64,000 nucleotides of DNA from an uncultured Chloroflexia bacterium (lineage in GTDB: Bacteria > Chloroflexota > Limnocylindria > Limnocylindrales > CSP1-4). Shown here one piece after another: positions 5,173-53,749 of the stretch. The first letter of the stretch is position 1. Each line of letters begins with the position of its first letter. The DNA is taken from NCBI GenBank assembly GCA_963845925.1, contig CAWJUA010000022.1, forward strand, positions 145,863 to 209,862, given 5' to 3'. The translations under genes were made by a program, and so were the position numbers. The notes beneath the pieces are model-generated. The model did not search any database and had not been told where the DNA came from. It saw nothing but the letters and a program-made list of their open reading frames with translations.

Positions 5173-6587
5173 TCAGCCCCGGGCGGCTTCCGCCGAGCGG
5201 CGGACCGGCTTGCGGTGGAGGAGATGCTGCGCCCGCGGCGCGCCGCGACCCGCGCTGCTGCGGCCCCGTCCCGTATCGGGCCCACCGCGGAGCGGCTGCG
5301 GCGGCGTGTTCCGGTCGGGGATGAAGCCCTCCTCGACCGTCCACGGGATCGCCTTGCGGAGCAGCCGCTGGACGCCCCGCAGCAGGTCGGTCTCGTCGAT
5401 GCAGACGAGGCTGATCGCGTCGCCCATCTGGCCCGCGCGTCCCGTCCGGCCGATCCGGTGGATGTAGTCCTGCGGGTTCCACGGCAGCTCGAAGTTCACG
5501 ACGTGGGGCAGGTCCTCGATATCGAGGCCGCGGGCCGCGACGTCGGTCGCGACGAGGACCCGGATCTCGCCCGACTTGAACCCTCGAGCGCCCGCGTCCG
5601 CTCGGGCTGCGTCCGGTCGGAGTGGATCGCGACCGCGTCGATCCCGGCCCGGTCGAGCCACGACGCCAGCCGTGAGGCCGCGAGCTTGGTCCGGGTGAAC
5701 ACGAGCACCTGGCGGAGGTCCTGCGACCGGATCAGGTGGGCCAGCAGCTCCTCCTTGCGGTCGCGGTCGACCGGGTAGACGAGCTGGCGGATCGTGTCGA
5801 TCGTCGCGTTGCGCGGCGCGACCTCGACCTCGACGGGGTTCCGCAGGATCGTCTTCGAGAGGCGCCGGATGTCGTCGCTGAAGGTCGCCGAGAACATCAG
5901 GTTCTGGCGCTGTGCGGGGAGCAGGGCGAGGATCTTCTGGATGTCCGGCAGGAAGCCCATGTCGAGCATCCGGTCGGCCTCGTCGAGGACGAGAATCTCG
6001 ACCTGGCTGAGGTTCGCGACCCGCTGGCCGACGAGGTCGAGCAGGCGGCCCGGCGTCGCGACGAGGATCTCGATCCCGCCGCGGAGGGCCTTGATCTGGG
6101 GATCCATCGGGATGCCGCCGTAGACAACGGTCGAGCGGAGCGGCACGGAGCGGCCGTAGGTCCGGACGCTCTCGTCGACCTGCATCGCGAGCTCGCGGGT
6201 TGGGACGAGGATGAGGACGCGGACCGGGTGACGGGCCGGCGAGAAGGAGGTGTTCGCGTGATGCCGGAGCCGGTCGAGGATCGGCAGCGTGAACGCCGCG
6301 GTCTTGCCGGTGCCGGTCTGAGCGGCGGCGAGAACGTCGCGGCCTGCGAGGACGAGGGGGATGGCCTCCGCCTGGACGGGAGTCGGGATGATGTAGCCCT
6401 CCTCCTTGACGGTCTGGAGGAGATCGGCCGACAGGCCGAGCGAATCGAAGGTCAAGTGGTCTCCTGCGGGCCCGACCGCGGCCTGATCGTCAGGCGTCTG
6501 GCGGTGGGCTGTTGGGGCTGGGTCGACGGGCCGCCGGCCCGCGCAATCGTTGTAACGCGAACGAGCATACCCGATCCGGGGCGTCAA
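5173..6587 (-). CDS. DEAD-box ATP-dependent RNA helicase (RhlE/CshA-like), interrupted by an apparent single-base frameshift near 5580
   Basis: Motifs Q, I (AQTGTGKT), Ia (PTRELA), II (DEAD), III (SAT) lie in ORF 5496..6587. Motifs V/VI ([15 protein letters not shown]) continue in ORF 5173..5661 in another frame. The junction RALEG|[10 protein letters not shown] sits at a short A/T run. The likely start is the TTG at ~6455 (MTFDSLGL). The RG-rich C-terminal tail is typical. Confidence 0.85.
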
Positions 6588-6711
6588 CCCCTCGCCGCGC
6601 CTCGCAGGACACGTGAGTGCGCCGGCCCGGGTGTCCGGACCGGCGCGCCCGCGACCACGCCGGTGGGGGAAACCGGGGGCCGCGGGGGATGAATGGCGCG
6701 AAGTGCCCTGG

Positions 6712-6897
6712 CTACGCGGCCCTTCGAAGCGCGAAGAAGGCCGGGACCTCGCCGTGGAGGCACTTGTAGCAGGCGAACTGGGGCGAGACGTGCGCGCCGT
6801 TGTCGTGGGCGACGGCCAGCCGCGCCACGAGGATCTCGTGCTGGCTGAGGCGGCGCACCGGGAAGCGAATCTGCGAGACGGTGGCGGTCGTGGTCAT
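6712..6897 (-). CDS. Small hypothetical protein (61 aa) between the helicase and the secreted peptidase-like gene
   Basis: ATG-initiated ORF MTTTATVSQIRFPVRRLSQHEILVARLAVAHDNGAHVSPQFACYKCLHGEVPAFF with non-junk composition and a Cys pair. I recognise no homology. Confidence 0.25.
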   Translation of the reverse strand: MTTTATVSQIRFPVRRLSQHEILVARLAVAHDNGAHVSPQFACYKCLHGEVPAFFALRRAA

Positions 6898-7435
6898 GAC
6901 GAGGCGATCTCCTGGATGGACGGGCTGAGGTCGTATCGTCGCCGGGGCCGGGCCACGATCCCATGGCCGCACGTCCGGTGCCGGTGCTCGACGTTTGACG
7001 ACCACGCGGTCGGCGCACGTCGACTGGCGCCTGGCGTCTGCCCGATCGGACATCCGGGTCACGGCGGCGATGACCGCGCCCATCGGCCGGGTCGACTGAA
7101 TGCACCGAACCATTGGCGGCCGGGGACTGGCCCCTTCGGGCGAGCGACGGGCTTCCCACGAGTGGCATACTCCCCCTGACCCCCAGGCCACGAAGACAGG
7201 ACAAACAGAAGACCGCCGCCCCCACGGCAGAACCCTGTCGTCCGGCCGAGCGCCCCCCACGCCCGGCCACCCTTCAGGATCGGCTCACCCGGTCCCGCCC
7301 CCATCCCTGGCGTTCCGCTCTTTGGTGTGCCTGCGCGCGCGCCTGGAGTCGCGCCATGTCTCCCTCTGCCGCCGGCGGCCCACCACCGTCACCGCGACTC
7401 ATGCGCGGTGTTCCGGGAGAGAGGAGGCAAGAGCG

Positions 7436-8314
7436 TTGCCGGTCCACCAAGAGGGCGCCCAGAGGGCGTCTGGCCATCGAACCCTGCGGCTGCTCGTCAG
7501 CCTGGCGATCGCCGCCGTCTTCGCCACCACCGGCGCAGCCGCCCATTCCGCGGCCGCCGCGACACCGATGAAGGTCGTCATCGTCGTCGGGCCGGTCGGG
7601 TCGGCGACGTCGAACTACATCTACAACGCGAAGAAGCTCGCCGCCCAGGCCCGCTCGTACGGCGCGACGGTGATCGAGCTGTACAGCCCCCACGCGACGT
7701 GGTCGCGGGTCAAGAGCGCCGCCCAGGGCGCGAACGTCCTGATCTACCTCGGCCACGGCAACGGCTATCCCAGCCCGTACGGCGCGTTCAGCGCGAAGAG
7801 CAAGGACGGGATGGGCCTCAACAGCTACGACGGCAGCTCGTCCCACACCTACTACGGCGAGTACTACGTCGACCACGACATCCAGCTCGCGAACAACGCG
7901 GTGGTGATCCTCAACCGCCTCTGCTACGCGTCCGGCAACAACGAGTGGGGCGCGGGCTACCCGGCGCGCTCGACCGCGATGGCGCGGGCCGACAACTACG
8001 GCGCGGGCTTCCTCCGGGCGAACGCCAAGGCCGTCTTCGCGGAAGGCATCGACAGCGCCTCGTACATCCTCTACGGCCTGTTCAAGACCGACCGATCGAT
8101 GACCCAGATCTGGTGGAGCGACCCGGCCCGTGACGGGCGCTGGGACTTCGGGTTCAACTCGGCCCGGACGCCGGGTTACCGCGTCTCGATGGATCCGACC
8201 GACGGGTCGAACCGCTACTACCGGTCGCTCGTCGGGAACATCTGGATGACGGCGAAGGAGTGGCGCACGGCCGCGGCCGCGTCGGCACTGGGCGTGGCGA
8301 CGACTGGCCGGTAG
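7436..8314 (+). CDS. Secreted protein with a caspase/gingipain-like (peptidase clan CD) His-Gly...Cys arrangement
   Basis: TTG start at 7436 preceded by GAGAGGAGG. Signal peptide RTLRLLVSLAIAAVFATTGAAAHSAAAA. Beta-strand then HG (VLIYLGHGNG) and beta-strand then Cys (VVILNRLCYASGN), as in clan CD peptidases. The family assignment is tentative. Confidence 0.6.
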   Translation: MPVHQEGAQRASGHRTLRLLVSLAIAAVFATTGAAAHSAAAATPMKVVIVVGPVGSATSNYIYNAKKLAAQARSYGATVIELYSPHATWSRVKSAAQGANVLIYLGHGNGYPSPYGAFSAKSKDGMGLNSYDGSSSHTYYGEYYVDHDIQLANNAVVILNRLCYASGNNEWGAGYPARSTAMARADNYGAGFLRANAKAVFAEGIDSASYILYGLFKTDRSMTQIWWSDPARDGRWDFGFNSARTPGYRVSMDPTDGSNRYYRSLVGNIWMTAKEWRTAAAASALGVATTGR

Positions 8315-8421
8315 GCAGCGCGAGTCGCGTCGCCCTCGCCCGACCGGGCGTCAAAGGGCGCGGCAGGCGGAGTACGGCGCGGGCGCCTCGGAGCGAGCGC
8401 GGCGCGCCCGCGCCCCAGCGG

Positions 8422-8613
8422 CTACGCAAAGATCGAGGTCTGGCGGGGAAGGACCTGGATCGTCCGGCGGCTGGACCGCTCGATGATCGCCGGGTCGCTC
8501 GCCACGCGGGCGACGACGCCGAGGATCGTCTGGTAGCGGTCGGGCCGATCGACGCAGATCCGGAACGCCCGGATCGCCGGCTGCGGCTGCGACGGGAGGT
8601 GGTGGCTGTCCAT
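8422..8613 (-). CDS. Small hypothetical protein (about 63 aa)
   Basis: MDSHHLPSQPQPAIRAFRICVDRPDRYQTILGVVARVASDPAIIERSSRRTIQVLPRQTSIFA has balanced composition and high GC3. Competing ORFs here are R/S/P junk. Confidence 0.3.
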   Translation of the reverse strand: MDSHHLPSQPQPAIRAFRICVDRPDRYQTILGVVARVASDPAIIERSSRRTIQVLPRQTSIFA

Positions 8614-8818
8614 GGCCCACAGCATCGACCCGTCGTGCGTCGGGCCGTATCAACGGCAGGAGTCAATCGCCCGGGACGTCGGCGGTAGCGCCCGATTGGT
8701 CACATGACGTAGGACTCGGCGGGACTCGTCCGGCCGCAGACGCGCGGAGGCCCCGGTCCGCCCCGCCGCATCGCGGGTCGGCCGGGGCCATGAGGTTCCC
8801 GGTTGTTCCGGCCTCGGT

Positions 8819-8949
8819 CTAGGCGAACGTGGCCTGGGCCACGATCCCGAGGATCGAGAGCAGGATCATCAGCAGGAGCAGGGACCCGATGAAGGCCCCG
8901 CTCTGTCGCTGGACGTCGTTGATGTCGATCAACGGTGTCGATGCGAACA
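8819..8949 (-). CDS. Possible tiny single-TM membrane peptide (about 40 aa) downstream of the MFS gene
   Basis: GTG/TTG-initiated ..LIDINDVQRQSGAFIGSLLLLMILLSILGIVAQATFA*. A GC-rich inverted repeat (GGCCCCGG...CCGGGGCC) lies just upstream at ~8745-8790. Confidence 0.25.
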
Positions 8950-9194
8950 CGTCGTGCCTCCTTCCGGCCTGTGCCTGCGAGCGGCCGGGCTGGCCGCCGT
9001 TGCCAACACCGTAGGCGCGGCGGGCTCGGCAGCCAGTCGGCGGGCGTCGCCTCGAGCCGCTCGGCGAACGACCGCTCGGGGACTGGACGGATGTCGGGAG
9101 ACGGCGAACGCGGCGCCGCCGGCGCCCGGTGCCCGGAGGGGTGGGAGATCCCTCCGTGGCGACCGGCGCCGGCGGGTGCCGGAGAGGCCGCGGC

Positions 9195-10547
9195 TCAGTC
9201 GGCGGCGGACGTCGCGAGGGCCGGGAGGCGGCCCTCCTCGACGACCGGCCGCGGCTGCATGCCGCGGAAGCCAATGAGCGAGATGACCGCGCCGACGGCG
9301 ACGATCGCGCCGGCGAGGAAGAAGACATTGCGGACCCCGACGAGGTCCCCGGCGATCCCGGCAAATGCCATCGACAGGACGGTCGCGGCCGACATTGCCG
9401 CGTTCAGGACCGACATGATCCGGCCCCGCTCGGCGTCGACGACGTTCGTCTGGAGCAGCGTCACGACCGACGCCTGGAGCGGCGAGACGAACCAGCCGAC
9501 GAGGAACATCAGCAGCAGGACCTGCCAGATCGCCGTCACGGCGCCGGTCAGTGCGATGAGGACCGCCACGCCGACGAGGCCGATCGTGATGATCGCCGTC
9601 GGTGGGATGCGGGCCGCGATCGCGCCGATCATGCCGGCGGCGAGGATCATCGATGCGCTCTGGGCCATGTCGAGCGGGCCGAACCACGCCGGGCTGACCA
9701 CGAGGACGCGGGTCATCAGCGGCACGAACAGGACGTTGACCGCGCCCAGGCCGAGCATGACGACGGCGAGCGAGGCGATCGTCGTGGAGAGGAGCCGCGA
9801 GTGGGCCACGCGCGAGAGGCCGAGGGTGAGGCTGGCGAAGATGCCCGGGGTGGGTGCCGGGGCCGGCGCGGCGGTTGCGTCGGCGGAGGTCGAGGCGGGC
9901 GTCGCCGCCGGGCTCGGCGTGATCCGGCCGACGACGGCGGGCAGGCCGAGGATCAAGACGAACGAGGCGAGGAACGACAGCCCGTCGAGCACGAACGCCG
10001 GCCAGAACACGCCGGCCAGGCCGATGATCAGCCCCGCGAGGCCGGCCCCGACGATCCCCGCGATGACGCGCGTCGCCTGGGCGATGGAGTTCGCGGCGAG
10101 CAGGCCCTCGCGCGGGACGACCTTCGGGATGACCGCGCCGCGGGCCGGCGCGAAGAACGTGCCGATGCTCGATTGGACGAACGCGAAGAGGAACAGCAGC
10201 CACAGGCGGTCGGCGCTGCCGACGAGGACGAAGCCCAGGACGACGATCGCCCGGAGCAGGTCCGAGGCGAGCATGATCCGGCGTCGGTCGGCGCGGTCGA
10301 CGTAGGCGCCGGCGAACAGCCCGATCGTCAGCGGCGGGATCGCGAGGCAGATCGCCATCGCGGCGATCGCGGCCGTCGAGCCGGTGATCGAGTTCACGAG
10401 CAGGAGCAGGGCGAGGTTCGTCAGCCCGTCGCCGGCCTCGGAGACGAGCTGGCCGAGCCACAGCCGGCGGTAGTTCGGGAGGCGCAGGACCGCTCTGGCG
10501 GAGAGCGTGGCCGGCGCAGACGGCGCGGGCGCCGTGGATTCAGTCAT
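9195..10547 (-). CDS. MFS transporter (12-TMS, EntS/DHA3-like)
   Basis: 450-aa polytopic protein with the N-terminal LRLPNYRRLWLGQLVSEAGDGL motif of the EntS/DHA3 MFS subfamily. Its start overlaps the stop of the ArsR-type regulator by 8 nt. Confidence 0.85.
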   Translation of the reverse strand: MTESTAPAPSAPATLSARAVLRLPNYRRLWLGQLVSEAGDGLTNLALLLLVNSITGSTAAIAAMAICLAIPPLTIGLFAGAYVDRADRRRIMLASDLLRAIVVLGFVLVGSADRLWLLFLFAFVQSSIGTFFAPARGAVIPKVVPREGLLAANSIAQATRVIAGIVGAGLAGLIIGLAGVFWPAFVLDGLSFLASFVLILGLPAVVGRITPSPAATPASTSADATAAPAPAPTPGIFASLTLGLSRVAHSRLLSTTIASLAVVMLGLGAVNVLFVPLMTRVLVVSPAWFGPLDMAQSASMILAAGMIGAIAARIPPTAIITIGLVGVAVLIALTGAVTAIWQVLLLMFLVGWFVSPLQASVVTLLQTNVVDAERGRIMSVLNAAMSAATVLSMAFAGIAGDLVGVRNVFFLAGAIVAVGAVISLIGFRGMQPRPVVEEGRLPALATSAAD

Positions 10548-11217
10548 CGGATGCCTCCGGGTTGGTCGTCGTCGATTCCGAGGGGTAGATCGCGAGCAGG
10601 TAGCCGAACGGGACGGCTCCCGGCTCGACCTTGGAGGGATCGTCGGTGTCGAACTCCTCGAGGAGCTCGCGAAGCCGTCGGCGGAGCTCGGCGGCCCGGT
10701 CGGGGTGGAGCATCGTCAGGCCCCGGACGAGCAGCTCGCGGAGCGGGTCGTCCTCGGACTTGACCATGCCGCTCGCGAGTCCCCGTTCGATCTCGTCACG
10801 TACCGAGTCGAAGACGACCGCGAGGACGTCGTGAACGCTGCTCCGGACGTCGGCGCCGGCGCCCGAGAGCAGGGACCGGTCGAGCCGGATGGACATCGCG
10901 CTGATGCGGTAGCTGGTCTCGATGATCCCCGAGACGACGCGCGTGCCGGCGATACGGATGAGGTCGCGCTCCTCGAGGATGTTGATGTGGTGGTAGAGCT
11001 TCGTCGTGTTCGTGCCGAGGGCCTTCGCCAGGCGCTTGACCGTCCAGGCCTCGTCCGCCGCGGTGACCATCGTCTCGAGGATCCGGAGGCGGACCGGGTC
11101 GGAGATCGCCTTGAGCGTCTCGACGTCCGAGATCACGCGCTCGGCGAGCGGCTCGAAGGGCTCGACATCCTCGCCGCTGCCCGTTGCCGCCGCGCTCACC
11201 GCTGCCTGATCGTTCAT
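10540..11217 (-). CDS. ArsR-family (HTH_20-like) transcriptional regulator, co-transcribed with the MFS transporter
   Basis: HTH ISDPVRLRILETM...VKRLAKALGTNTTKLYHHINILEERDLI. ATG at 11217 with AGGAGC SD. The track ORF extends to a TTG at 11238. Confidence 0.8.
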   Translation of the reverse strand: MNDQAAVSAAATGSGEDVEPFEPLAERVISDVETLKAISDPVRLRILETMVTAADEAWTVKRLAKALGTNTTKLYHHINILEERDLIRIAGTRVVSGIIETSYRISAMSIRLDRSLLSGAGADVRSSVHDVLAVVFDSVRDEIERGLASGMVKSEDDPLRELLVRGLTMLHPDRAAELRRRLRELLEEFDTDDPSKVEPGAVPFGYLLAIYPSESTTTNPEASDD

Positions 11218-11230
11218 TCCGCTCCTATCA

Positions 11231-11246
11231 TTCAACAATCGTTGAA
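11231..11246. promoter_or_regulatory. Perfect 6-4-6 palindrome TTCAACaatcGTTGAA, candidate autoregulatory operator
   Basis: Lies 14 nt upstream of the ArsR-type regulator ATG (minus strand) and overlaps its 5' UTR. ArsR-family repressors bind palindromes of this kind. Confidence 0.4.
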
Positions 11247-11537
11247 CGTACAGTAGCGGCTAACAAGCAGATGTCAAGCCCTGGGCGGCTGCTTGTCGGC
11301 GTTGGGCACCGGAATTCCGCTGGGAGCGGCCAAACCCGGGGTAACCGGCCAATAGGGCCTCCCGACCCGGGCGGTTTCGGGCGAGCGCGTGCTCAGCCGA
11401 ACGGCGGAGCGCCCGCGCGAGGGCCCTGGGCCGACCGTATCGCCCTCCAAGGCCCCGAATTTGCCGGTGGGAGCGGAATTGGCGTCGCCAAGGCGGAACC
11501 AGTCGGCGTCCGCGAGTACGCGGCCGGCCCCCGCCGC

Positions 11538-14500
11538 TCAGCCTGGCGCGGCCGCGAAGCTCCCCGGCGAGCTGGCACGGGCCCCGGCGCCACTCCCCGT
11601 CGACCCCGGGAACGGTGCCGCCTCGACCGAGATCTCCTCCATCTTCGCCGCGTAGAACCCGTAGCGCCGGCGCGCCTCGCCGTGGCGTCCGGCCGCGACC
11701 AGCGCGGCGACCAGTCCCAGGTGGGCGCCCTCGTCGTACGGGTCGCGCTCGAGGATCCGGAGGTAGTAGCGGGTCGCGCCGTCGGCGTCGCCGTCCACCG
11801 CGGCGGCCTCGGCCAGCGACCGGGCGATCGAGATGTACGTCGCCTGGGCCTCCTCGCGCAGCGCCGACCGCCCAGTCCTCGTACGGGTCCTCCTCGAGGA
11901 AGTCGCCGCCGTACAGCGCCTCGGCCGTCTCCAGCTTCGACCGCGCGGTCCCCGCGTCGCCCGATGCGGGCCAGCCGTGCGGCCGCCGCCGCCTCGACGA
12001 GGAACGCCTCGACGTCGAGCTCGAGGTGGTCGAGGTCGAGCGCGATCGAGCCCTTGTCGGCCGGCACGAAGTACTCGGCCGGGTAGCGCTTGTCCGGGTC
12101 GAGGACGGACCGGACCGTGGCCAGCGCGACCGACAGCCGGTTGCCGAGCGGCTCGGGGTCGTCGTCCGGCCAGAGCAGCTCGAAGAACGTGTCGCGGGTC
12201 GTCGGCCGGCCGCGCCGCGCGACGAGGATCTTCAGCAGGTCGCGGGCCTTCTTCGACTGCCACGCCGTCGTCGGGACGGGCATCGCCGTCGCGGACGAGC
12301 CGGAACCGCCCGAGCGACTGGATCCGGAGCGTCGGCCGCGCCGCGCGGTCGTGATCGCCTCGACGATCTCGTCCGCGTCGGCGGCCGGCCCGCGGGCGCC
12401 CATCGAGCGGAAGGCCCGCTCCGCCTCGATCGCGGCGTCCCGCCCCGCGTCCCCGCCGGCGATCCGGGCGAACACGAGCCGGTTGCGGGCGTGGCCGTAC
12501 GGCGCCGGCGAGCCGGCACCAGATCCGAGGCGGCCTCGTCGACGAGCGCCGAGCGCCTCGTCGGGGTCGAGCGCGGTCAGCGCCGCCAACTCGAGCGACG
12601 CGGCCATCCCCGGATCGTCGCGGCGCGCCCGCGACACCTCGATCGCCTCGCGTGCGCGACGCTTCGGCCGCCTCGCGGTCGCCGAGGGAGAGCGCGACCC
12701 GCGCCGCGCCGAGCAGGACCGTCACGGCCGCGACGTCCCGGCCGATCGCCATCGCCCGCTCGGACGAGCTCGGCGGCCTGGGCCGGGTCGTCGAACACGA
12801 TCGTCTGGGCGAGCCCGATCAGCGCCGGCGCGAGGGCCTGGCTGTCGTTCGCGTCGCTCGCCGCGCGGACCGCGTTCTCGAACGCCGCCCGGGCGAGGAA
12901 CCCGTCGCCGCGCAGCGCGTGCATCGAGCCCTCGCGGGTCAGCGCCAGTGCCACGGACGGCGACCCGATCCGCTCGTAGATCGCGCGGGCCGCGGTGAAG
13001 TCGGCCATCGCCTCCTCGAACCGGCCGATGCCCTGCTTGGCCCGGCCGCGGTTGACGAGCGCCCGGGCGTGGAACGCGGAGAAGCCGACCGTGTCGGCGT
13101 GGCGGACGGCCTCGTCGAGGATCTCGAGGGCCGGCCTCGAACTGGCCGCGCTCGACCTCGAGCGCGCCGCGCGCGTTGCGGATCCGGGCGACCTGGAGCG
13201 CGTCGCCCGCGCGGTCCGCGGCCACGAGCGCGGCCGCGTAGTCGGACGACGCGCGCGAGGGATCGTTCGCGAGCTCGTGGAGCTGGCCCATCGCGGTGTG
13301 CGCGGCGGCCATCGCCCGCGGGTCGTCGCAGGCGACCGCCAGCGCGACGGCCTTCTCCGCCGCGACCCGGCTCGCCTCGACGTCGCCGCGGTGGGCGTGG
13401 GCCGAGGCGATCCACGCCTCGAGCAGCGCTTCGTCGGCCGGCTGGCTGCCGTCGACCTCGGCCCGGGCGTAGATCGCGAGGGCCTCGCCGTAGGCGCCGC
13501 GGACGCCGTGGACCACGCCCATGCGCCACGCGGTCGCCGCGTCGAGTCGCCCATCCGGCCCGACCGCCCGGCCGAACGCGGCGAGCGCCTCGCGCCACTC
13601 CCCGCGGGCCAGGCACGCCTCGCCGAGCGCCCGCTCGATCGCCGGCTCGCGGAGCTCGATCGGCACGAGCGCCGTCGCCTCGACGACCTGGCGCGTGGCG
13701 CCGCGCAGGACGAGCTCGCCGCCGTGGCGGCCGAGGAACCGGGCCAGCGCCGCCGGATCGTCGGCCTCGACGAACGAGGCCAGCGCCGCCTCGAGCCGGC
13801 CCTCGCCCTCGAACCAGCCGGCCGCCGCGTGGTGGAGGTCGCGGATCTCGGCCGGCGACAGCGGCAGCCGGGCCAGCGTGTACTCCCGGATCAGCCCGTG
13901 CAGCGAGAACCAGCCGGCCTCGCCCGGCAGCGGTTGGAGGAACAGCGCCCGCTTCGCGAGCTCCTCGAGCGTGTGGGCCGGGTTCGGCACGCCGATCGCC
14001 GCCAGCAGCGGCGCCGAGAACCGGTCGAAGTGGACCGCGCTCCTGACCAGCGCCCGGGTGTCGTCGGTGGCGTTCGCGACGACCTCCTCGGCGAGGTACG
14101 CGAAGATCGGGCCCTCCGGACGCTGGAGACGATCGAGGACCGCTTCGCGGTCGCCGCCGGGCGCGTTCCGATACGCCTCGAGCGCGAGGCGGACGGCCGC
14201 CGGCCAGCCGCCGGTCGCGACGTGGATCCGCGTCGCCGCGACGTCGTGCAGGTCGGCGTGATCGCGGTCGTCGCCGAGCAGGGCGTGGAGCAGCTCGTGG
14301 ATCTCGTCGGCCGAGAAGGCGAGCGCGGTCCCACCCAGGTCGAGCACCTGGCCCTGGCCCCGCAGCCGCTCGATCGCGAACGGGACCTCCGACCGGGACG
14401 TGACGAGGACATGGAGCCCGGCCGGAGCGAGCCGGACGAGCGCCTCGACGAAGCGGAGCGAGCCGGACGCCCCGGCGAGGACGTGGAGGTCGTCGAGGAC

Positions 14501-14989
14501 GAGCACGAGGTCGTCGTCGAGCGCGGCCTGGAGCGCGTCGACGACGAGCGCGGCCGCGGCCGACGCCTGGGCGACGATCGCCGCGTCGTCGGTCGCCTCG
14601 ATCGAGCTCTCGACCGCGTCCGCGGTGTCGTCGGCGATCGCGGGCACGCGGACGCGGAGCGCGGCGGTGATCCCGGACGCGAGCGCGCCGATGTGGCGGT
14701 CGGAGGCGTCGAGCGTGTACCAGGCGGTCGGGCGGGCCGCGGCGACGCGGGCGGCGAGCGTCGACTTCCCGAAGCCGGCGCCACCGACGACGATCGTGAG
14801 CCGGCGGTCCGTGCCGTCGAGCAGCCGCGCCTCGAGCTCGGGTCGGGCGAGCGTCCCGATCGGATCCGTCGGCGGCAGCAGCTTCGCCGACCGCCCGCGG
14901 CCCGCGCGCGTGACCTCGTCGCGCGCCGGCGGCGTCGCCCCGGCTGTTTCGGTCGTCGATTGCCTGACGGCGTCGGGGTCGGCGGTCAT
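11538..14989 (-). CDS. Very large regulator: STAND/MalT-like P-loop NTPase, TPR repeats, then C-terminal OmpR-type winged HTH + BTAD (SARP module). Broken by five or more apparent frameshifts (possible pseudogene).
   Basis: Walker A TIVVGGAGFGKSTLAA and Walker B LVLVLDDLH near the N-terminus (14.9-14.4 kb). Long TPR-like region follows. wHTH (WQSKKARDLLKILVARRGRPTTRDTFFELLWPDD..) and BTAD (AEALYGGDFLEEDPYEDWAV..YYLRILERDPYDEGAHLGLVAALVAAGRHGEARRRY) lie at 12.3-11.5 kb. The sequence hops between all three frames near 13140, 12715, 12655, 12320/12290, 11900 and 11850. Confidence 0.7.
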
Positions 14990-15110
14990 CGGGATCCCCT
15001 GCGAACTGTCGCAATGGTACGAGCCGCCAGCGCCCGCGGCCATAGACTCTCGGCCGATGCGGCCGGACGCTCATCAGGATGATCAAGGATTACAAAGTGC
15101 AAAGAGGACT

Positions 15111-15172: not shown

Positions 15173-15602
15173 GTGCCGCACGACGTCATCTCCACCTGTC
15201 CCGTCTGCTCCAGCGAGCTGGCGGTCACCCGCCTCCACTGCTCGAGCTGCGGGACGACCCTCGAGGGCGACTTCAGCGTCGGCCGGTTCGGCCGGCTGTC
15301 GCGCGATCAGCTCGCCCTGCTCGAGAGCTTCCTCCGGTCGCGGGGCAACCTCCGCGACATGGAGCGCGAGCTCGGCATCTCGTACCCGACGGTCCGCTCG
15401 CGCGTCGAGCAGCTCGTCCGGTCGCTCGGCTTCGGGCCGCGCGGCGACGACGACGCGACCGACGACGCGACGGCCGCCGCACCCGCCGGCGACGCCGCCG
15501 GGAACCCCGTCCCGACAGGACATCCTCGAACGGCTCGCTCGCCATGAGATCGGCGCCGAGGAGGCCGCGGCGGCCATCCGGGCGCTTGGGAGGACCCGAT
15601 GA
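15173..15602 (+). CDS. DUF2089-family protein (zinc-ribbon + HTH) with a SHOCT-like C-terminus. Apparent frameshift near 15512.
   Basis: CPVCSSELAVTRLHCSSCGTTLEGDF...LSRDQLALLESFLRSRGNLRDMERELGISYPTVRSRVEQL. The C-terminal RQDILERLARHEIGAEEAAAAIRALG is in a +1 frame (ORF 15129..15602). The junction sits at a CCC run. Confidence 0.7.
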
Positions 15603-16682
15603 ACGCGACCGACACCACCCAGACGATCGAGCACGGCATCGGCGACCACGGCATCGTGACCGTCCGCCTCGCCGACTGGGACGCCGAGATCCGCGGCATC
15701 GACGGCGACACGGCCCGGGTCTGGAACGCGAACGGCGGCCCGCTGCCGGACGAGCTCCAGGTCGACCGGACTGCCGACGGCATCGCGATCCGGCAATACG
15801 ACAAGGGCCTGACGATCGTCCTCGGCCGGCGCTCGCGCGACGTCCGACTCGCGATCGAAGTCCCGAAGTCCGCCGCCGTCTCGATCCAGACCGCGAGCGG
15901 CGACGCCCAGGCGACCGGCCTGCGCGGCCCGGTCAATGCCCGGTCCGCGAGCGGCGACCTGATGCTCGTCGACGTCAACGGCGAGGTCCAGGCGGAGACC
16001 GTGTCCGGCGACGTCGCGATCCGCCTCGACGGCCCGACCGGCCTCGTCGTGAAGACGGTCTCAGGCGACGCGATCGTCGAGGGCAGCCGGGTCGACCGGT
16101 TCGCGTTCACGACGACGAGCGGCGACCTGCGGATCACGAGCGAGCTCGGCGCGGGACCGCACACGATCGCGACGGTCAGCGGCGACGCGATCGTCACGAC
16201 CCGCAACGGCATCCGGGTCTCGGCCCAGACCGTCGCCGGCGATCTCAGCAGCGACCTGCCGCACAGCTCCGAGGGCCGCGCCGGCCGCCGCTCGCTGATC
16301 GTCGGCGAGGGCACGACCGTCGTCCAGTTCCGCTCGGTGTCGGGCGACCTGCGGGTCGTCGGGCCGAATGACGGCAACCACCTCGTCGCCCCGACGCCGC
16401 CGGCCCCGCCCGTCGCCCCGACGCCGCCCGCGCCGCCGGTCCCGCCGCTCGCGGCCGCCTCCGCCGCGGTCGAAGCTCGAAGCGGAGCTCGAGGCCACCA
16501 ATGCCGAAATCGAGGCGGCTAATGCCGAAATCGAGGCGGCCAACGCGGAGATCGGGGAGACCGTCGCGGACCCGGGCGAGGACGCCCGCCTCGAGATCCT
16601 CCGCGCGCTCGAGCGCGGCGAGATCGGCATCGACGAGGCCACGAAGCGCCTCGCCGAGCTGGACGGTCAGTCCGATGTCTGA
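15599..16682 (+). CDS. DUF4097 / LiaG-YvlB-like putative adhesin (beta-helical SGD repeats) with a coiled-coil C-terminus. Apparent frameshift near 16472.
   Basis: Repeated ...SGD(V/L)x(I/V).. units (ASGDAQA, ASGDLML, VSGDVAI, VSGDAIV, TSGDLRI, VSGDAIV, VAGDLSS, VSGDLRV). A Pro-rich linker (APTPPAPPV x2) follows. The C-terminus KLEAELEATNAEIEAANAEIEAANAEI..RLEILRALERGEIGIDEATKRLAEL continues in another frame (ORF 16368..16682). Confidence 0.7.
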
Positions 16683-17070
16683 TCCGCTCGACCAGGTCCT
16701 GCGCCTCGTCGCCGAGGGCCGGCTGACCGCCGAGGAAGCCGCGCCGATCATCGACGCGCTTGAGGCGACCGGCCAGACCGGCGATGACGGCGACGAGCCG
16801 GTCGCACCCCTCGGCGCGACGGGCTCGCCCGGGGCCAGGTCGTCCGGCCGGCCGAAGGTCATCCGGATCGAGGTCTCGGAAGACGGCCGCAAGGTCGTGA
16901 ACCTCCGCGTCCCGATCTCGCTGGGCCGGATGGGCCTGGACCGCATCCCCGGCCTTTCGGCCGACAGCATCTCCAGCATCCGGCGGGCCCTCGACGAGGG
17001 TCTGACCGGCCCGATCCTCGCCGTCGACGAAGACAGCGAGGGCAACGGCGTCCGAATCGTCCTCGAGTAG
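16675..17070 (+). CDS. Hypothetical protein with an N-terminal SHOCT/DUF1707-like helix pair
   Basis: MSDPLDQVLRLVAEGRLTAEEAAPIIDALEATG... then VIRIEVSEDGRKVVNLRVPISLGRMGL... The ATG overlaps the stop of the DUF4097 gene (ATGTCTGA). Confidence 0.55.
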   Translation: MSDPLDQVLRLVAEGRLTAEEAAPIIDALEATGQTGDDGDEPVAPLGATGSPGARSSGRPKVIRIEVSEDGRKVVNLRVPISLGRMGLDRIPGLSADSISSIRRALDEGLTGPILAVDEDSEGNGVRIVLE

Positions 17071-17094: not shown

Positions 17095-17358
17095 ATGAAC
17101 GCGACCTTCGACGGAGCCCGGATCCATCAGCAGGAGCTCGATCGGGAGATCGAAAGCATCCGCACCGAGAAGTTCCTCAACGCCCAGGTACCGAGCCGGC
17201 CCGGCCCGATGGCCCGCGGCCTGGCGTCGGTGGGGCGGGGGATGATCAGCGTCGGGACGGCGCTCGCGAGCCGCGTCGACGCGGCTCCGGCGCGCTCGAC
17301 CGGACGGCGGCCAGGCCTGACCGTCAGGCCCTCGCCGGATCGCTTCGAGCGTCCTTGA
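17095..17358 (+). CDS. Small hypothetical protein (87 aa)
   Basis: Perfect SD (AAGGAG) 9 nt before the ATG. MNATFDGARIHQQELDREIESIRTEKFLNAQVPSRPGPMARGLASVGRGMISVGTALASRVD. Confidence 0.5.
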   Translation: MNATFDGARIHQQELDREIESIRTEKFLNAQVPSRPGPMARGLASVGRGMISVGTALASRVDAAPARSTGRRPGLTVRPSPDRFERP

Positions 17359-18573
17359 CCACGATGCCGCCCTTCATCACGATCGGCACGTCGGACAGCA
17401 CGCCGACGTCCGCCAGCGGATCGCCCGCCACGGCCACGAGGTCGGCGGCGAGTCCGCGCGTCAGCCGCCCGACGCGGTCGCCCCAGCCCATCAGCTCCGC
17501 GGCGACGACCGTCGCCGAGCGGAGCGCCTCCGCCGACGTCATCCCGTATCGGACGAGATAGGGCAGCTCGCCGGGCGTTGAGCCCGTGCGGGTAGACCCC
17601 GCTGTCCGTCCCGTAGGCGAGGCGGACCCCCGCCGCGACGGCCTTCCGGAACCCCTCCCGCTGGGCATCGGTCGTCTGCCGGTTCTTCTCGAGCGTCTCG
17701 GCCGGCCACCCGTCGCGCGCCCCGACCTCCTCGATCCAGTCGCCGTCGTAGATGTCCGCGACCCAGAACGTGCCGCTGTCGGCGAGCAGCGCGATCCCCT
17801 CGTCGTCGATGAGCGAGCCGTGCTCGACCGACCGGACGCCGGCCCGGATCGCGACCTTGATCCCCTCGGTGCCGTGGGCATGGGCCGCGACGAAGACGCC
17901 GTGGGCCGCTCGCCTCCTCGACCGCCGCCCGGACCGTCGCCTCGTCGAGCTCGACGACGTCCGGCCTCGTGCCGCGCGTGAGGACGGCGCCGGTGACGAT
18001 CAGCTTGATCAGGTCGGCGCCGCCGCCGACGAGCTCGCGGACCTTCTGGCGCGCCTCGGCGGGCGATCGCACGACGCCGAAGCGCAGGTCCGCGGGAAGG
18101 GTGACGTCGAGGGCCAGCCCGGTGACCTCGCCGCCGCCACCGGGCGAGGTGACGTAGGCGCCGGCGCACTGCATCCGCGGGCCGGCCAGCCAGCCGGCGT
18201 CGATCGCGTCGCGCAGCGCGACGTCGACGAACGCGCGGTACGTGCCGACGTCGCGGACGGTCGTGAACCCCGCCTCGATCGTCGCTCTCGCGTTCCGGAC
18301 GCCGGTCATCGCCTCCTCCGCGGCGCTCGTCGTCGTCGCCGGCACGCCGGCGAACTCCATGTCGCCGATGAGGTGGCTGTGGCAGTCGATGAGGCCGGGC
18401 AGGATGGTCAGGCCGGACAGGTCGAGGACGCGCGCGCCGTCGGGCGTCGCCTCGCCGTCGCCCAGGACGGCCTCGACCGCGCCGTCCGCGATGAGGAGCT
18501 GGCGACCGCCGAGGACCTCGCCCGCGTCGACGTCGAGGAGGTCCGCGCCGCGGATGACGAGGAAGTCCGCCAT
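17324..18573 (-). CDS. Metal-dependent amidohydrolase (imidazolonepropionase / Xaa-Pro-dipeptidase-like superfamily), split by an apparent frameshift near 17930
   Basis: N-terminus with the HxH metal motif (LIDCHSHLIGD) is in ORF 17539..18573. The middle (AAHGVFVAAHAHGTEGIKVAIRAGVRSVEHGSLIDD...) and C-terminus (LPYLVRYGMTSAEALRSATVVAAELMGW..DLVAVAGDPLADV) are in ORF 17324..18169 and a third frame. Confidence 0.75.
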
Positions 18574-18614
18574 GGCGGCCGATCCTAGCAGCCGTCCGAG
18601 GCTATGATCGGGCC

Positions 18615-19252: not shown

Positions 19253-19274
19253 CACTACTCCCGAAGGGACAGGC

Positions 19275-20531: not shown

Positions 20532-20688
20532 CCACCGCCTGACGCCGCGAACGTTCGCCCGGTTTCGCCGGACCGCGACGGATGTCGCATTCGCCGCCTC
20601 GACATCCGCCCGATGCCGCGGCTCGCCGCCGCGGCGCGACGATCGGTCCACCAACACGAACCACGTCTTCGTCTCTGGGGAGAGCTCG

Positions 20689-33347: not shown

Positions 33348-33370
33348 GCGTCGCTCGCGCGACACGCGAA

Positions 33371-37964: not shown

Positions 37965-38131
37965 ACCTGACCGTCGGCTGGGTCGACGCCCGCATCGTGG
38001 GCCACCGCCGGTATTGCTGTCATGCCCCAGCGCGGCTCGGGATGCGACGGCGGCGTAGCGAGATGTCACCGCGACGGTGCACGCTTATCGTCGGATCGAC
38101 CGCCACGCAGCACACCGGGGAGGAACGAAAC

Positions 38132-40390: not shown

Positions 40391-40723
40391 ATGACTTCTC
40401 AACGCCGGCTTCCCGCCGAGCGCGATCGCGCGGTCGCCCGCCTCCACTCGCTGACCCGGGGCGCGGCCGTGGGCGGCGTTCTTGGCACGCTGCTGTTCGG
40501 CGCCGTGGCGGCAGCCTCGTATGACGGAACCGTTACGACGACGACGGCGGCGAACTCCAACGAGAGCGCGGCCCAGGTTGCCGCCGACAATTCGACGGCC
40601 AACGGAGCGACCGCGACGACGGACGGCGAAAGTTCGACCGACGACAGCCAGCTCCAGGCCACCCCGGCGCCCACGACCTCGACGACGTCGGGCGCCGCGC
40701 ACGCCTCGACCGGCGGCTCATGA
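40391..40723 (+). CDS. Small exported Thr/Ala/Ser-rich protein (110 aa) heading the ApbE operon. Candidate flavinylation substrate.
   Basis: N-terminal TM/signal (GAAVGGVLGTLLFGAVAAASY) and a low-complexity TS-rich tail containing ..DNSTANGATATTDG.., which resembles the ApbE target motif [ST]GA[ST]x[ST]. Its stop overlaps the apbE start. Confidence 0.45.
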   Translation: MTSQRRLPAERDRAVARLHSLTRGAAVGGVLGTLLFGAVAAASYDGTVTTTTAANSNESAAQVAADNSTANGATATTDGESSTDDSQLQATPAPTTSTTSGAAHASTGGS

Positions 40724-41700
40724 CCGACATCGCAGCGGCCGGCTGGCGGGCCATCGGCACCGGCGTCCGCGTCGTCGTCCACGATGGCAGCCTCGACGCC
40801 GCCCGGGCGGCCGTGGTGGACGTCCTCGACGAGGTCGACCGGGCCCTGAGCCGGTTCCGCGACGACAGCGAGCTGTCCCTGTTGAACGCCCGATCCGGCG
40901 AGGAGGTCGGCGCTGTCGCCGCTTCTCGGCGACGCGATCGCGGCCGGGCTGCGCGCGGCCCGGATCACGAACGGCGCCGTCGACCCGACGGTCGGGCGGG
41001 CGATGCGCCTGATCGGCTACGACCTCGACTTCCGGAGCCTGCCCCAGGACGGAGCGCCGCTCGAGGTCCGCTTCGAGGCCGTGCCCGGCTGGCAGACGGT
41101 CGCGCTCGCCGCGGACCGCCGCCGCGTCCGGGTCGCGCGCGGCGTCGAGATCGACCTTGGTTCCGTCGGCAAGGCGCTCGCCGCCGATCTCGCCGCGGGT
41201 CGTGCGCATGCGACGCGATGGGCCGCGGCGGCGTCCTCGTCTCGCTCGGCGGCGACATCGCCGTCGCGGGTACGCCGCCCGACGGCGACTGGCGGGTCCT
41301 CGTCGCGGAGGACAGCGAGGCGCCGGCCGACGGACCCGGCGAGGTCGTCGCGATCCGGACCGGCGCGATCGCGACGTCGAGCACGACCGTCCGGCGCTGG
41401 CGGCGCGGCGACCGCGCCCTGCACCACCTCATCGATCCTCGGACCGGCGCCCCGGTCGAGTCGCCGTGGCGGACCGCGTCCGTCGTCGCGGCCACGTGCG
41501 TCGACGCCAACACGGCCGCGACCGCGGCGATCGTCCTCGGCGACGCCGCGCTTGACTGGCTCGGGTCGACGGGCCTCGTCGCCCGCCTCGTCTCGACCGA
41601 CGGCGAGGTCGTCCGCGTCGGCGGCTGGCCGGAGCCGGCCGAGACGCGATCGTCTCCGGAAGCGGGCGCCCTCGTGTCGTCCGGACGGGCCGGCTCGTGA
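40720..41700 (+). CDS. apbE: FAD:protein FMN transferase (ApbE family). Two apparent frameshifts (~40913, ~41218).
   Basis: ApbE hallmarks IDLGSVGKALAADLAA, LVSLGGDIAV, HHLIDPRTGAPV, DANTAATAAIV. The central third (SPLLGDAIAAGLRAARITNGAVDPTVGRAMRLIGYDLDF...) lies in ORF 41003.. in another frame. Confidence 0.75.
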   Translation: MTDIAAAGWRAIGTGVRVVVHDGSLDAARAAVVDVLDEVDRALSRFRDDSELSLLNARSGEEVGAVAASRRRDRGRAARGPDHERRRRPDGRAGDAPDRLRPRLPEPAPGRSAARGPLRGRARLADGRARRGPPPRPGRARRRDRPWFRRQGARRRSRRGSCACDAMGRGGVLVSLGGDIAVAGTPPDGDWRVLVAEDSEAPADGPGEVVAIRTGAIATSSTTVRRWRRGDRALHHLIDPRTGAPVESPWRTASVVAATCVDANTAATAAIVLGDAALDWLGSTGLVARLVSTDGEVVRVGGWPEPAETRSSPEAGALVSSGRAGS

Positions 41701-44511: not shown

Positions 44512-44513
44512 CC

Positions 44514-48724: not shown

Positions 48725-48782
48725 CCAACCGCCGCCGCCGGACCGTTCGACCTGACTCCAAGTCCGGTCGCCGGGCCATCGC

Positions 48783-52287: not shown

Positions 52288-53103
52288 CTAAGCCGCCGTC
52301 TCCGAGGCGACCGGTCCGACGCGGATCGAGACCACCTCGGTCGGCAGCGCCTTGCCCTTCAGATCGAGCGATCGCCGCTCGAGCGCGGGGTCCAGGCCGG
52401 CGGCCGCGGCCGCTGGAGTCGTCACGAGGATCTCGCCGGCGCGAGCGGTCGAGGCCAGGCGGGCCGTCGTGTTCATCGCGTCGCCAACGGCTGTCAGCTG
52501 GGTCCCGCCGCCCTCGCCAACCGCGCCGAACCAGGTCAGTCCGGTGTGGACGCCGGCGCCCAGCGGGACCCACGGCCCGGCGGGATCGTCGTGGCCGACC
52601 GCGACGAGGAGTGCCCTGGCGGCCTTCACCGCCTGCTCGGCGTGGTTCGACCCGGTGATCAGCGGGAAGAACAGCGCGACAAGCTCGTCACCGACGAACT
52701 TGTCCAGGCTGCCGTCGTGAGCGAAGACGACCCGCGTCGCGACGTTGTAGAAGCGGTCGAGCAGGGCCCGGAACTCCGTCGGCGACAGGTCCTCGGCGAT
52801 CGTCGTCGAGCCGCGGATATCCGCGAACAGCATCGACGCCTCGATCTCCGCGCCGCCGTGGTGGGTCGAGATGAACTCGAAGCACTGGTTGCACGTGTTG
52901 GGGTTCTGTGGAGCGCGGCGCTTGCCGATCACTCGCATCGCCGCGCCGCCGGGGCCAGTGAACGGGGCGGCGCAGAGGTGGCAGCGCGGCTCGGACGGCA
53001 AATGCTTGAACACGATCCGCAGGCGGCGCTCAAGCGTGTCGCCGTTCGTGAGGAAGTTCCGCCAGTAGTCCTCGCCGTAGACGCGCGGCGACTCAGCTGG
53101 CAT
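52288..53103 (-). CDS. Class III adenylate/guanylate cyclase with an N-terminal Cys4 zinc-ribbon
   Basis: Cyclase homology domain (FADIRGSTTIAEDL, FVGDELVALF, VGDAMNTTARLAS). N-terminal CHLC...CNQC. Confidence 0.8.
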   Translation of the reverse strand: MPAESPRVYGEDYWRNFLTNGDTLERRLRIVFKHLPSEPRCHLCAAPFTGPGGAAMRVIGKRRAPQNPNTCNQCFEFISTHHGGAEIEASMLFADIRGSTTIAEDLSPTEFRALLDRFYNVATRVVFAHDGSLDKFVGDELVALFFPLITGSNHAEQAVKAARALLVAVGHDDPAGPWVPLGAGVHTGLTWFGAVGEGGGTQLTAVGDAMNTTARLASTARAGEILVTTPAAAAAGLDPALERRSLDLKGKALPTEVVSIRVGPVASETAA

Positions 53104-53229
53104 GGATCCCGGCTCGCATCGCCCGAGTATGAGCGGGATCGGGTTCGCCGCAAACCTGACGGCCTGTGACAGGTGTCCGGGACTACAACTGCGTCACGAC
53201 GCGGGATGCCATCGAGCCAGGAGACGACG

Positions 53230-53749
53230 ATGGGAACATCCACGACTGATCTCGCCCCGCAAACGGACGCCGCGGATCACGACCCGGCCCACGACTTCGA
53301 CTTCTACTTCGGGTCGTGGCGCATCCACCACCACCAGCTCGTCGAGCGGCTCGCCGGGAGCGACACCTGGCGGGAGTTCGAGAGCACGTCCATCGCCCAG
53401 CCGACGATGGGCGGCCTCGGCAACATCGACGACAACGTCCTCGACCACCCCAACGGCACCTACCGCGCGATCTCGATCCGGGCCTACGACCCCGAATCGA
53501 GGCAGTGGGCGATCTGGTGGCTCGACGGCCGCAACCCGCACCACATCGACCCGCCGGTCATCGGCGGCTTCGAGGACGGCGTCGGGACGTTCATCGGCGA
53601 GGACACGTTCAACGGGCATCCCGATCCTCGTCCGGTTCCGCTGGTCGGACATCACCGAGACGACCTGCCGCTGGGAGCAGGCGTTCTCGACTGACCAGGG
53701 CGAGACCTGGGAGGTGAACTGGGTGATGGAGTCGACGCGGATCTCGTAG
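53230..53749 (+). CDS. Hypothetical protein (DUF-like, WxW/His-rich). Apparent frameshift near 53620.
   Basis: GGAGACGA SD, then ATG at 53230. The body is in ORF 53173..53694 and the C-terminus (ILVRFRWSDITETTCRWEQAFSTDQGETWEVNWVMESTRIS*) in ORF 53102..53749 in a different frame. Confidence 0.5.

Follow-up and report, generated by a model that had tools for sequence, protein, structure and literature searches.

That long-read assemblies fragment genes through small indels is documented (PMC12007338, PMC9262707), and such gene-fragmenting errors have been treated by Watson and Warr (2019, as discussed in PMC12007338), in connection with Kastor (PMC12007338) and by Sereika et al. (2022, PMC9262707). 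In these long-read and hybrid assemblies, indels of 1-2 nt divide conserved genes into adjacent ORFs of different frames, and the breaks are found by comparison with intact orthologues while no other sign of decay is present. The same is seen in the window analysed here, the whole stretch of 64,000 nt, and a public contig of long-read style (L091) similarly has an MFS gene split into three calls. The insertion-dominated, homopolymer-independent spectrum of the window differs from the best-documented Nanopore/HiFi consensus errors (PMC12007338); what remains there is mostly tied to homopolymers and, in Nanopore data, often consists of deletions, whereas ~90% of the window events are insertions, packed into tight patches and never at a run of four or more.

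Pseudogene-rich genomes, i.e. those of leaf-nodule Burkholderia (PMC6054270), Sodalis glossinidius (PMC7067036) and Salmonella (PMC2916853), likewise contain many frames disrupted relative to intact orthologues. The pseudogenes of leaf-nodule Burkholderia, which are GC-rich, hold 396 deletions totalling 7,421 nt and 300 insertions totalling 1,340 nt, a natural insertion:deletion count ratio of 0.76 (PMC6054270). Deletions outnumber insertions and sizes are broad in natural pseudogene sets, whereas the window events are of 1-2 nt only, with insertions ahead by about 20:2, and neither stops nor relaxation were detected. Natural pseudogene sets also have nonsense mutations and a relaxation of constraint. 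Programmed +1/-1 frameshifting, as in prfB, dnaX and the transposases of IS elements, uses sites that are kept among orthologues and accompanied by slippery or stimulatory motifs. There too a frame change is needed for the full-length product, but the window sites have neither a conserved shift nor a slippery or stimulatory motif.

Placement of the frameshifts

The GC content of 72% and the 'SARP' label would suggest that the window comes from an actinomycete, but this origin was rejected, since its nearest relatives are Chloroflexota. Its coding sequence carries at least 22 frameshift events, amounting to some two dozen stray single bases, insertions in nearly every case (~20 one-base insertions against 2-3 one-base deletions; all events 1-2 nt). 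They break a dozen otherwise well-conserved genes, ~12 of the ~60 in the window. The first-pass annotation had named at least 11 frameshifted genes; the frame map, split Pfam domains and alignments agree that all 11 are shifted, within ~25 nt of where it had placed the slips, and the observation is confirmed as real and larger than first reported. A GC3 Viterbi frame map switches frame on the same strand at 5581, 13129, 12762, 12650, 11959, 11862, 16473, 17904 and 17570, and further at 32738, 32929, 38350, 40908, 41192 and 53613, while Pfam divides single domains between frames in the helicase, the amidohydrolase and ApbE.

Events were placed by frameshift-aware protein-to-DNA alignment against intact orthologues together with DNA-level alignments. 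In independent short-read contigs of related Chloroflexota ('Ca. Limnocylindrales'), at 75-96% amino acid identity, every one of the broken genes occurs as one uninterrupted ORF. The comparators were L001, a MEGAHIT MAG, and L008, L010 and L051, which are JGI soil contigs; L088-L090 were also used. All of these are intact at the homologous positions, where the indels are absent. Two intact proteins of the window, the P450 and a 923-aa ORF, had no exact match in the contig collection. At every junction, both pieces match one and the same intact orthologue end to end at 71-100% identity, which excludes chance. This holds for the pieces of all 11 genes first listed, and it bears out the earlier view that conserved sequence resumes past the junctions: split Pfam domains continue, the alternative-frame continuations match the expected domains or orthologues, and identity is as high after the shifts as before. 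At four sites, base-level alignments show otherwise conserved flanks interrupted by a single additional base in the window; for 53617 (against three contigs), for 38349 and for 33474 the alignments have 87-92% nucleotide identity. The region from 43 to 64 kb was screened by Pfam completeness and the frame map, the longer contigs (L091, L092) with homologues of the 53.2-kb gene being non-syntenic or too short. The events outside the large regulator are as follows.

5580-5584, minus strand: DEAD-box helicase (CDS ~5176-6461), 1-nt deletion, the C of a GGC Gly codon missing; DNA gap against L001, L002 and L003
15500-15503, plus strand: DUF2089 protein (CDS ~15173-15602), +1 insertion between the HTH domain and the C-terminal tail; DNA gap
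16448-16473, plus strand: DUF4097 toastrack protein (CDS 15599-16682), +1 insertion in a Pro-rich linker, the exact base not placeable
17907, minus strand: amidohydrolase (CDS ~17324-18594), +1 insertion; Amidohydro_1 split, protein and DNA alignments
17569-17570, minus strand: amidohydrolase, second +1 insertion; same evidence
32740-32743, plus strand: flotillin/Band_7 protein (CDS ~31251-33347), 1-nt deletion; DNA gap
32951, plus strand: flotillin, +1 insertion that restores the frame; protein and DNA alignments
33472-33474, minus strand: lactonase-type beta-propeller (CDS ~33415-34576), +1 insertion 18 codons before the true stop; blastn gap
38348-38349, plus strand: membrane protein upstream of the P450 (CDS ~38095-38969), +1 insertion, A in GGC[A]GGC; blastn gaps against L008 and L051
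40909, plus strand: ApbE flavin transferase (CDS ~40659-41700), +1 insertion; ApbE profile split and alignments
41206-41214, plus strand: ApbE, net +2 (two +1 insertions 4 nt apart, 41206/41210) that restores the frame; profile split and alignments
53617, plus strand: conserved hypothetical protein (CDS 53230-53749), +1 insertion of C in AACGGG[C]ATCCCG; DNA alignments

The helicase is an intact single ORF in L001, L002 and L003, and its Helicase_C profile runs from 2 to 59 in one frame and from 59 to 110 in another, with 90/89% amino acid identity before/after the shift. The lesion had been attributed to a slip in an A/T run, but it is the lost C (window GAGGG-TTC, L001 GAGGGCTTC), and the local sequence contexts given at first were wrong, there being no homopolymer association overall. 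In the amidohydrolase, where a single slip near 17930 had been reported, that event lies at 17907 and the one at 17570 had been missed; Amidohydro_1 falls into three frame pieces (1-144, 146-258 and 252-342). The ApbE profile is similarly spread over frames (~1-49, 49-146 and 146-257). We had considered reading the DUF2089 gene as unshifted, both Pfam domains being complete in one frame that stops at 15545; this was overruled by the L001 orthologue, which is 88% identical across the +1 junction and up to 15593. A linker rich in Pro, together with a repeat specific to the window, weakened a first alignment of the DUF4097 protein, and three references resolved the site: the C-terminal tail ARLEILRALERGEIGIDEATKRLAELDG is readable in the shifted frame only, matches the in-frame tails of L001, L002 and L003, and that frame gives a weak SHOCT-like Pfam match.

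Flotillin has an intact 698-aa orthologue in L010 (85% identity). The flotillin segment is missing from L008, and a search for flanking repeats as its cause gave nothing convincing. The blastn gap in the beta-propeller lies in an alignment to L008 of 92% nucleotide identity, and all 18 downstream codons are identical once corrected. The corrected stops fit the local architecture; that of the beta-propeller, for instance, stands just before a hairpin (33371-33402) between convergent genes. The membrane protein aligns to L008 at 95%, with amino acid identity of 82/91% before/after the shift. For the hypothetical protein, the identical 1-nt gap is found against three independent short-read contigs (L088, L089 and L090), and the corrected 172-aa product has 1948 homologues, the best of them 95% identical over 100% coverage and of equal length.

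The AAA_16-TPR-Trans_reg_C-BTAD regulator (CDS ~11541-14990, minus strand) was credited at first with five or more sites, which is right as to their being multiple but an undercount. Ten events, all on the minus strand, were recovered twice, by a protein-guided aligner against the intact 1176-aa L001 ORF and as independent blastn gaps; further evidence is given in brackets.

13132-13135: +1 insertion
12764-12765: +1 insertion, T on the coding strand
12662-12670: +1 insertion
12550-12551: +1 insertion, first of a triplet restoring the frame within 40 nt
12525-12528: +1 insertion, second of the triplet
12512-12514: +1 insertion, third of the triplet
12339-12352: net +2 (CG insertion, or a +3 codon with a -1 deletion)
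12281-12282: +1 insertion (T) within Trans_reg_C (also Pfam)
11965-11966: +1 insertion within BTAD
11862: +1 insertion (G) within BTAD (also BTAD profile 52-134, in the shifted frame only)

Amino acid identity is 81% before these shifts and 71-92% after them in the corrected frames. All ten lie in the C-terminal 1.27 kb (1 per 127 nt), far denser than in the rest of the window, while the N-terminal 1.86 kb has none; the segment that bears them is more conserved than the N-terminus. Blastn also aligned a group of intergenic insertions, and two further coding events are probable.

14994-15029, no strand: five +1 insertions within 40 nt, intergenic, just upstream of the regulator start codon
30112-30113, plus strand: probable +1 insertion two codons after the putative start, the ATG of the L008 orthologue (gene ~30107-31076)
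1652-1730, minus strand: probable +1 in an Ala/Pro/Arg-rich linker joining a ~300-aa domain of unknown function to GreA

The intergenic group may reflect natural divergence. The locus at 1652-1730, which lies outside the range first annotated (5173-53749), is a single ORF in L002 and L003, and the upstream frame of the window stays open as far as the end of GreA. Aligner events at 6498, 15002, 15157, 15493, 17094, 18596, 20484-20664, 38056/38089, 40386 and 41693 were discarded: because stop-to-stop reference ORFs were used, they fall upstream of true starts or in antisense or overlapping ORFs. Those at 7194 and 7378 are intergenic, and one at 8274 was too weak to call.

Origin of the shifts

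The indels exist and are specific to the window sequence, and, read in the corrected frames, the genes beneath them show normal purifying selection. We infer that they arose during sequencing or assembly: very probably, the frameshifts are patchy errors in the assembly consensus, mostly stray single-base insertions that would come from unpolished long-read stretches. The contig would contain patches with a base accuracy far below that of the rest. Their plausible source would be single-molecule long-read stretches, thinly covered or missed by polishing, such as gap-filling or repeat-bridging segments of a hybrid or metagenomic assembly. PacBio CLR-type sequencing, with its random insertions, is a candidate for the producing platform by the resemblance of the error profile.

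Genuine and very recent pseudogenisation, leaving ~22 frameshifts in ~12 genes after, for example, a host-restricted or small-population shift or in a mutator background, appears unlikely. It would account for frames that are truly broken relative to intact orthologues, and several lesions in one gene, as in the regulator, are expected once that gene is dead. The comparators, moreover, are other strains than that of the window and only 75-96% identical, and individual sites may be very recent real mutations. Yet the broken genes contain no nonsense codons, large deletions or IS insertions, and ~3,800 corrected codons of coding sequence hold no in-frame stop. After correction, amino acid identity past each shift equals or exceeds that before it, and a relative-rate test on the helicase C-terminus (window 82/81% to outgroups, L001 86/83%) revealed no significant acceleration; no relaxation of constraint was detected after the shifts, although very recent inactivation would leave none either.

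The spectrum of events also speaks against decay. An insertion excess opposes the bacterial deletion bias (PMC6054270, PMC2817411), and ~20 insertions to 2-3 deletions departs from the natural ratio of 0.76 with P = 5e-4 to 8e-6. None of the 22 events falls at a homopolymer run of at least 4, though the window has 363 such runs, and within +-3 nt the longest run averages 2.09 at events against 2.03 at random positions. Where relatives are close enough to resolve single bases, the extra bases (C, A, G, T) do not copy their neighbours. Without homopolymer enrichment or neighbour duplication, replication slippage is unlikely as their source. The clustering of 10 events in 1.27 kb (Poisson P ~2e-10), against none in the N-terminal part of the same gene, is not what neutral decay would give; ten neutral indels should also bring many substitutions, yet that segment is the better conserved one.

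The first pass had likewise preferred assembly errors to decay, and the intact orthologues, undiminished conservation, missing nonsense codons and a spectrum unlike that of natural pseudogenes (PMC6054270) uphold this preference. Its proposed mechanism, homopolymer miscalls, fails on the same run lengths and base identities, and its statement that artefacts and pseudogenes could not be told apart was too pessimistic, since comparative evidence separates them fairly well. 'Pervasive', the word it had used, does not suit the distribution of the errors, which is patchy: ~35 kb elsewhere in the window has no visible event, and none is seen in at least 25 further genes whose Pfam matches run full length.

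It seems very unlikely to us that, among sites that are mostly assembly errors, the regulator with its ten events or some other gene should be a real pseudogene. The density in the regulator would suit such a mixture, but its signature is like that of the other sites (+1, non-homopolymer, no stops, high corrected identity), and the five further insertions in non-coding DNA immediately upstream suggest a low-quality patch and not a gene-specific process. There is also a slender chance that the ~22 frameshifts are real, very recent, insertion-biased, non-slippage changes concentrated in short patches. Localised mutation of an unusual kind, e.g. error-prone repair adding untemplated bases, would then operate in a free-living soil Chloroflexota, or else the cell would tolerate or decode +1 shifts; an unusual mutational regime would be indicated, and the evidence is strongly against it. 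Programmed recoding, in which ribosomal +1 frameshifting, transcriptional slippage or quadruplet decoding would restore the frames in vivo, fits the identical +1 correction that most events require but is effectively refuted by lack of conservation, as orthologues are in frame at every site and none keeps any shift, no slippery, pausing or other motif is common to the 22 event contexts, some sites would take a correction of -1 or +2, a stretch of 40 nt holds three +1 events, and similar insertions occur in intergenic DNA.

Consequences for the reading of the genes

With consensus errors as the preferred explanation, gene calls, lengths, starts and pseudogene counts are unreliable in patches of this contig, and the same probably goes for the remainder of the genome. 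Some 12 of the ~60 genes would enter an annotation as split or 'frameshifted'; among them, a 1,150-aa STAND/SARP-type regulator would come out in five or six pieces. Insertions of random bases, patchy and independent of homopolymers, are a warning in themselves, as polishing or quality control focused on homopolymers would miss such errors. The value of the finding is practical and not biological: the affected genes are to be read in their corrected frames, and the corrected coordinates yield full-length proteins.

Frame switches and split domains

Since the GC content of the window is 72% throughout, long open stretches occur in every one of the six frames (301 ORFs of 80 aa or longer), and ORF lists by themselves tell little. 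We derived a gene map by Viterbi segmentation, with six coding frames and a non-coding state, from codon-position GC and in-frame stops. The map gave a clean gene layout plus same-strand frame switches that are no gene boundaries, at 5581, 13129, 12762, 12650, 11959, 11862, 16473, 17904, 17570, 32738, 32929, 38350, 40908, 41192 and 53613, in agreement with the coordinates of the first-pass annotation. Pfam searches on the stop-to-stop pieces flanking each switch found single domains shared between frames: Helicase_C (2-59 in one frame, 59-110 in another), Amidohydro_1 (1-144 / 146-258 / 252-342 among three frames) and ApbE (about 1-49 / 49-146 / 146-257, the third piece back in the first frame). 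The other same-strand frame changes each fell at a stop codon with a start nearby, like ordinary gene boundaries, and could hide short compensated pairs.

The nearest genomes are Chloroflexota MAGs labelled Candidatus Limnocylindrales, which rules out an actinomycete affinity. L001, a MEGAHIT short-read MAG contig, is syntenic with 4.5-22.8 kb at 75-93% amino-acid identity. A metagenome scan using the LMF1-like gene as query yielded three soil contigs: L008 (92% nucleotide identity over 29.5-31.1 and 33.4-38.5 kb), L051 (spanning 37-42 kb) and L010 (with the flotillin gene). Each affected gene covered by these four references is a single uninterrupted ORF there. Each intact orthologue was aligned to the window with a purpose-written frameshift-allowing protein-to-DNA aligner, and the results were cross-checked by gapped blastn. 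Apparent events upstream of starts or within antisense ORFs, due to the use of stop-to-stop reference ORFs, were dropped.

Affected and unaffected genes

Frame map, split domains and orthologue alignments together confirmed that all 11 genes named earlier are frameshifted. The frameshifts are real, while the earlier count of about 17 was too low: at least 22 coding events are present.

Coding events (+1, base inserted in the window relative to intact orthologues; -1, base deleted)
5580-5584: DEAD-box helicase, -1
13132, 12764, 12662-70, 12551, 12528, 12514, 12339-52 (net +2), 12282, 11966, 11862: regulator (AAA_16-TPR-Trans_reg_C-BTAD protein, about 11541-14990, minus strand), ten events
15500-15503: DUF2089 gene, +1
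16448-16473: DUF4097 gene, Pro-rich linker, +1
17907 and 17570: amidohydrolase, +1 each
32740-43 and 32951: flotillin, -1 and +1
33472-74: beta-propeller, +1, 18 codons ahead of the stop
38348-49: membrane protein, +1
40909, 41206 and 41210: ApbE, +1 each
53617: hypothetical protein at 53230, +1, two frames joined manually into 172 aa
30113: probable further event, two codons past a start codon
1652-1730: probable further event, linker of the unknown-domain/GreA ORF

For the joined 172-aa protein, 1948 homologues are found in the database; the top four match at 92-95% identity over 100% of its length, and two of these, the first included, are exactly 172 aa long. At 53617 the window reads AACGGGCATCCCG, as against AACGGG-ATCCCG in three independent short-read contigs. 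The DUF4097 C-terminal tail is legible in the shifted frame only, up to the stop at 16680. Comparison with L008 places a -1/+1 pair, 70 nt apart (30043/30112), near where gene 30107-31076 putatively starts.

The frameshifts had been described as pervasive. Their distribution is patchy rather than uniform, and about 35 kb shows no visible event. Against the same references, the intervening MFS (9198-10547), ArsR (10543-11256), P450, amine oxidase and LMF1 genes are event-free, as is coding sequence at 19260-19640 and 22338-22820. In stretches lacking a close reference, judged by Pfam, at least 25 further genes have an essentially full-length domain match within one frame (e.g., Na_H_Exchanger 5-374/375, MFS_1 1-346/347, Peptidase_M3 3-456/457, Voltage_CLC 2-343/346, sigma-70 regions 1.2 to 4).

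Gene content and domain organisation

The flotillin/Band_7 gene (31080-33371) is missing from L008, where its flanks abut at 5129-5133, while L010 (2030-4123) has flotillin without the adjacent beta-propeller and amine-oxidase genes, so that close relatives differ in gene content here. No convincing flanking repeats were found at the flotillin locus. Between the convergent flotillin and corrected beta-propeller stops lies a GC-rich hairpin (33371-33402; AACGGCCCGGCCGC / GCGACCGGGCCGTT, 4-nt loop), likely a bidirectional terminator, through which the uncorrected beta-propeller ORF would run straight. Upstream of the beta-propeller, at 34689, the window has a 10-nt insertion relative to L008 in a duplication-like CGCCGACGCCCG context.

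In the intact L001 orthologue (5733-9176), the regulator comprises AAA_16 (STAND ATPase), TPR, Trans_reg_C and BTAD in that order, which places the SARP-type DNA-binding module C-terminally. The AfsR-type order is SARP, NB-ARC, TPR, so the arrangement is reversed. On the plus strand, 15173-17067 encodes consecutively a DUF2089 HTH protein, a DUF4097 toastrack protein and a 130-aa protein (start near 16683), each with a short SHOCT-like segment of the 'LEILRALERGEI' or 'LDQVLRLVAEGRLT' type, an operon kept in L001 and in two further relatives, L002 and L003. A 21-nt tandem repeat (16489-16554, plus strand, 3.1 copies), an insertion relative to these three loci, encodes IEAANAE heptads in the DUF4097 C-terminal tail.

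A conserved domain of some 300 aa that matches no Pfam family (1160-2448, minus strand; GKWIERLP...VLYVGSS...LPFANLR) shares one ORF with GreA in L002 (16286-18631), separated by an Ala/Pro/Arg-rich linker, and its frame in L003 (19785-21233) is stop-free through the linker to the locus end. These sequences suggest that GreA may be N-terminally extended in this lineage, with the caveat that L002 and L003 are long-read style MAGs themselves. A 923-aa ORF with strong coding signal (57380-60151, minus strand) gave neither a Pfam hit at E <= 0.001 nor an identical sequence in the contig collection.

Origin of the frameshifts

The comparative evidence supports the reading preferred in the first-pass annotation, and the frameshifts are very probably assembly consensus errors. 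That annotation had held artefacts and pseudogenes to be inseparable, yet comparative tests separate them reasonably well. Genuine recent pseudogenisation is improbable, given undiminished conservation past the shifts and zero in-frame stops in about 3,800 corrected codons (the lone stop in the raw count sits upstream of the ApbE start). In corrected frames, downstream identity to the orthologue matches the upstream level at each shift: helicase 90% before and 89% after, amidohydrolase 79/85/82%, flotillin 86/83/84%, membrane protein 82/91%, and regulator 81% then 91/71/78/75/75/82/89/92/88/89%. In a relative-rate comparison of the helicase C-terminus, the distance of the window from the outgroups L002 and L003 does not significantly exceed that of L001. 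Very recent inactivation would leave constraint unrelaxed all the same.

The spectrum of about 20 +1 insertions and two to three -1 deletions, none larger than 2 nt, also argues against decay. Deletion bias is a general bacterial pattern (PMC2817411), and natural pseudogenes of GC-rich Burkholderia have 300 insertions against 396 deletions of broad sizes (PMC6054270). Relative to the latter ratio, the insertion excess is significant (P = 5e-4 on a conservative count, to 8e-6).

The homopolymer mechanism proposed earlier proved wrong, as did the local contexts (A/T run, CCC run). None of the window's 363 homopolymer runs of 4 or more coincides with an event, and the mean longest homopolymer within 3 nt on either side is 2.09 nt at events vs 2.03 at random positions. 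At sites that close relatives resolve to the base, the inserted nucleotide does not duplicate a neighbour (GGG[C]ATC at 53617; GGC[A]GGC at 38349; T, C, C, T, G, T, C and G in the regulator). The helicase deletion is the loss of a lone C from a GGC codon. Replication slippage, the usual natural origin of 1-nt indels, would not give such contexts.

Neutral decay should be uniform along a dead gene, with accompanying substitutions, whereas all ten regulator events are confined to the C-terminal 1.27 kb, with none in the N-terminal 1.86 kb (P ~2e-10 under a uniform rate), and conservation is higher in the segment rich in indels than in the event-free one. Three of these events fall within 40 nt and together restore the frame. 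Just upstream of the regulator start, non-coding 14994-15029 carries five +1 insertions vs L001 within 40 nt, and their signature is the same as that of the coding errors. A mixture, with a real regulator pseudogene and errors elsewhere, appears less probable still than genuine pseudogenisation. Programmed recoding is effectively removed, since no slippery or pausing motif is common to the 22 contexts and none of the orthologues carries a shift.

As to the source of these consensus errors, the contig would be largely accurate, with patches of low-accuracy consensus holding stray inserted bases. Such patches may derive from a long-read assembly thinly covered or not polishable, or alternatively from a hybrid assembler spanning gaps or repeats with long-read sequence. 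Residual Nanopore and HiFi errors are homopolymer-centred (PMC12007338; PMC9262707). The window's errors differ from these in being random-base insertions unrelated to homopolymers. Their profile is presumably closer to that of PacBio continuous-long-read errors. The same class of artefact is seen in a publicly available assembly whose contigs bear long-read style names (ENA ERZ1370068 contig_8523, 7758-9115), where an MFS transporter is called as adjacent 135-, 102- and 202-aa pieces, which illustrates how common such artefacts are. The frameshifts are most probably a routine technical artefact with little biological interest, and their value lies in the caution they call for on this contig and in the set of corrected gene models.
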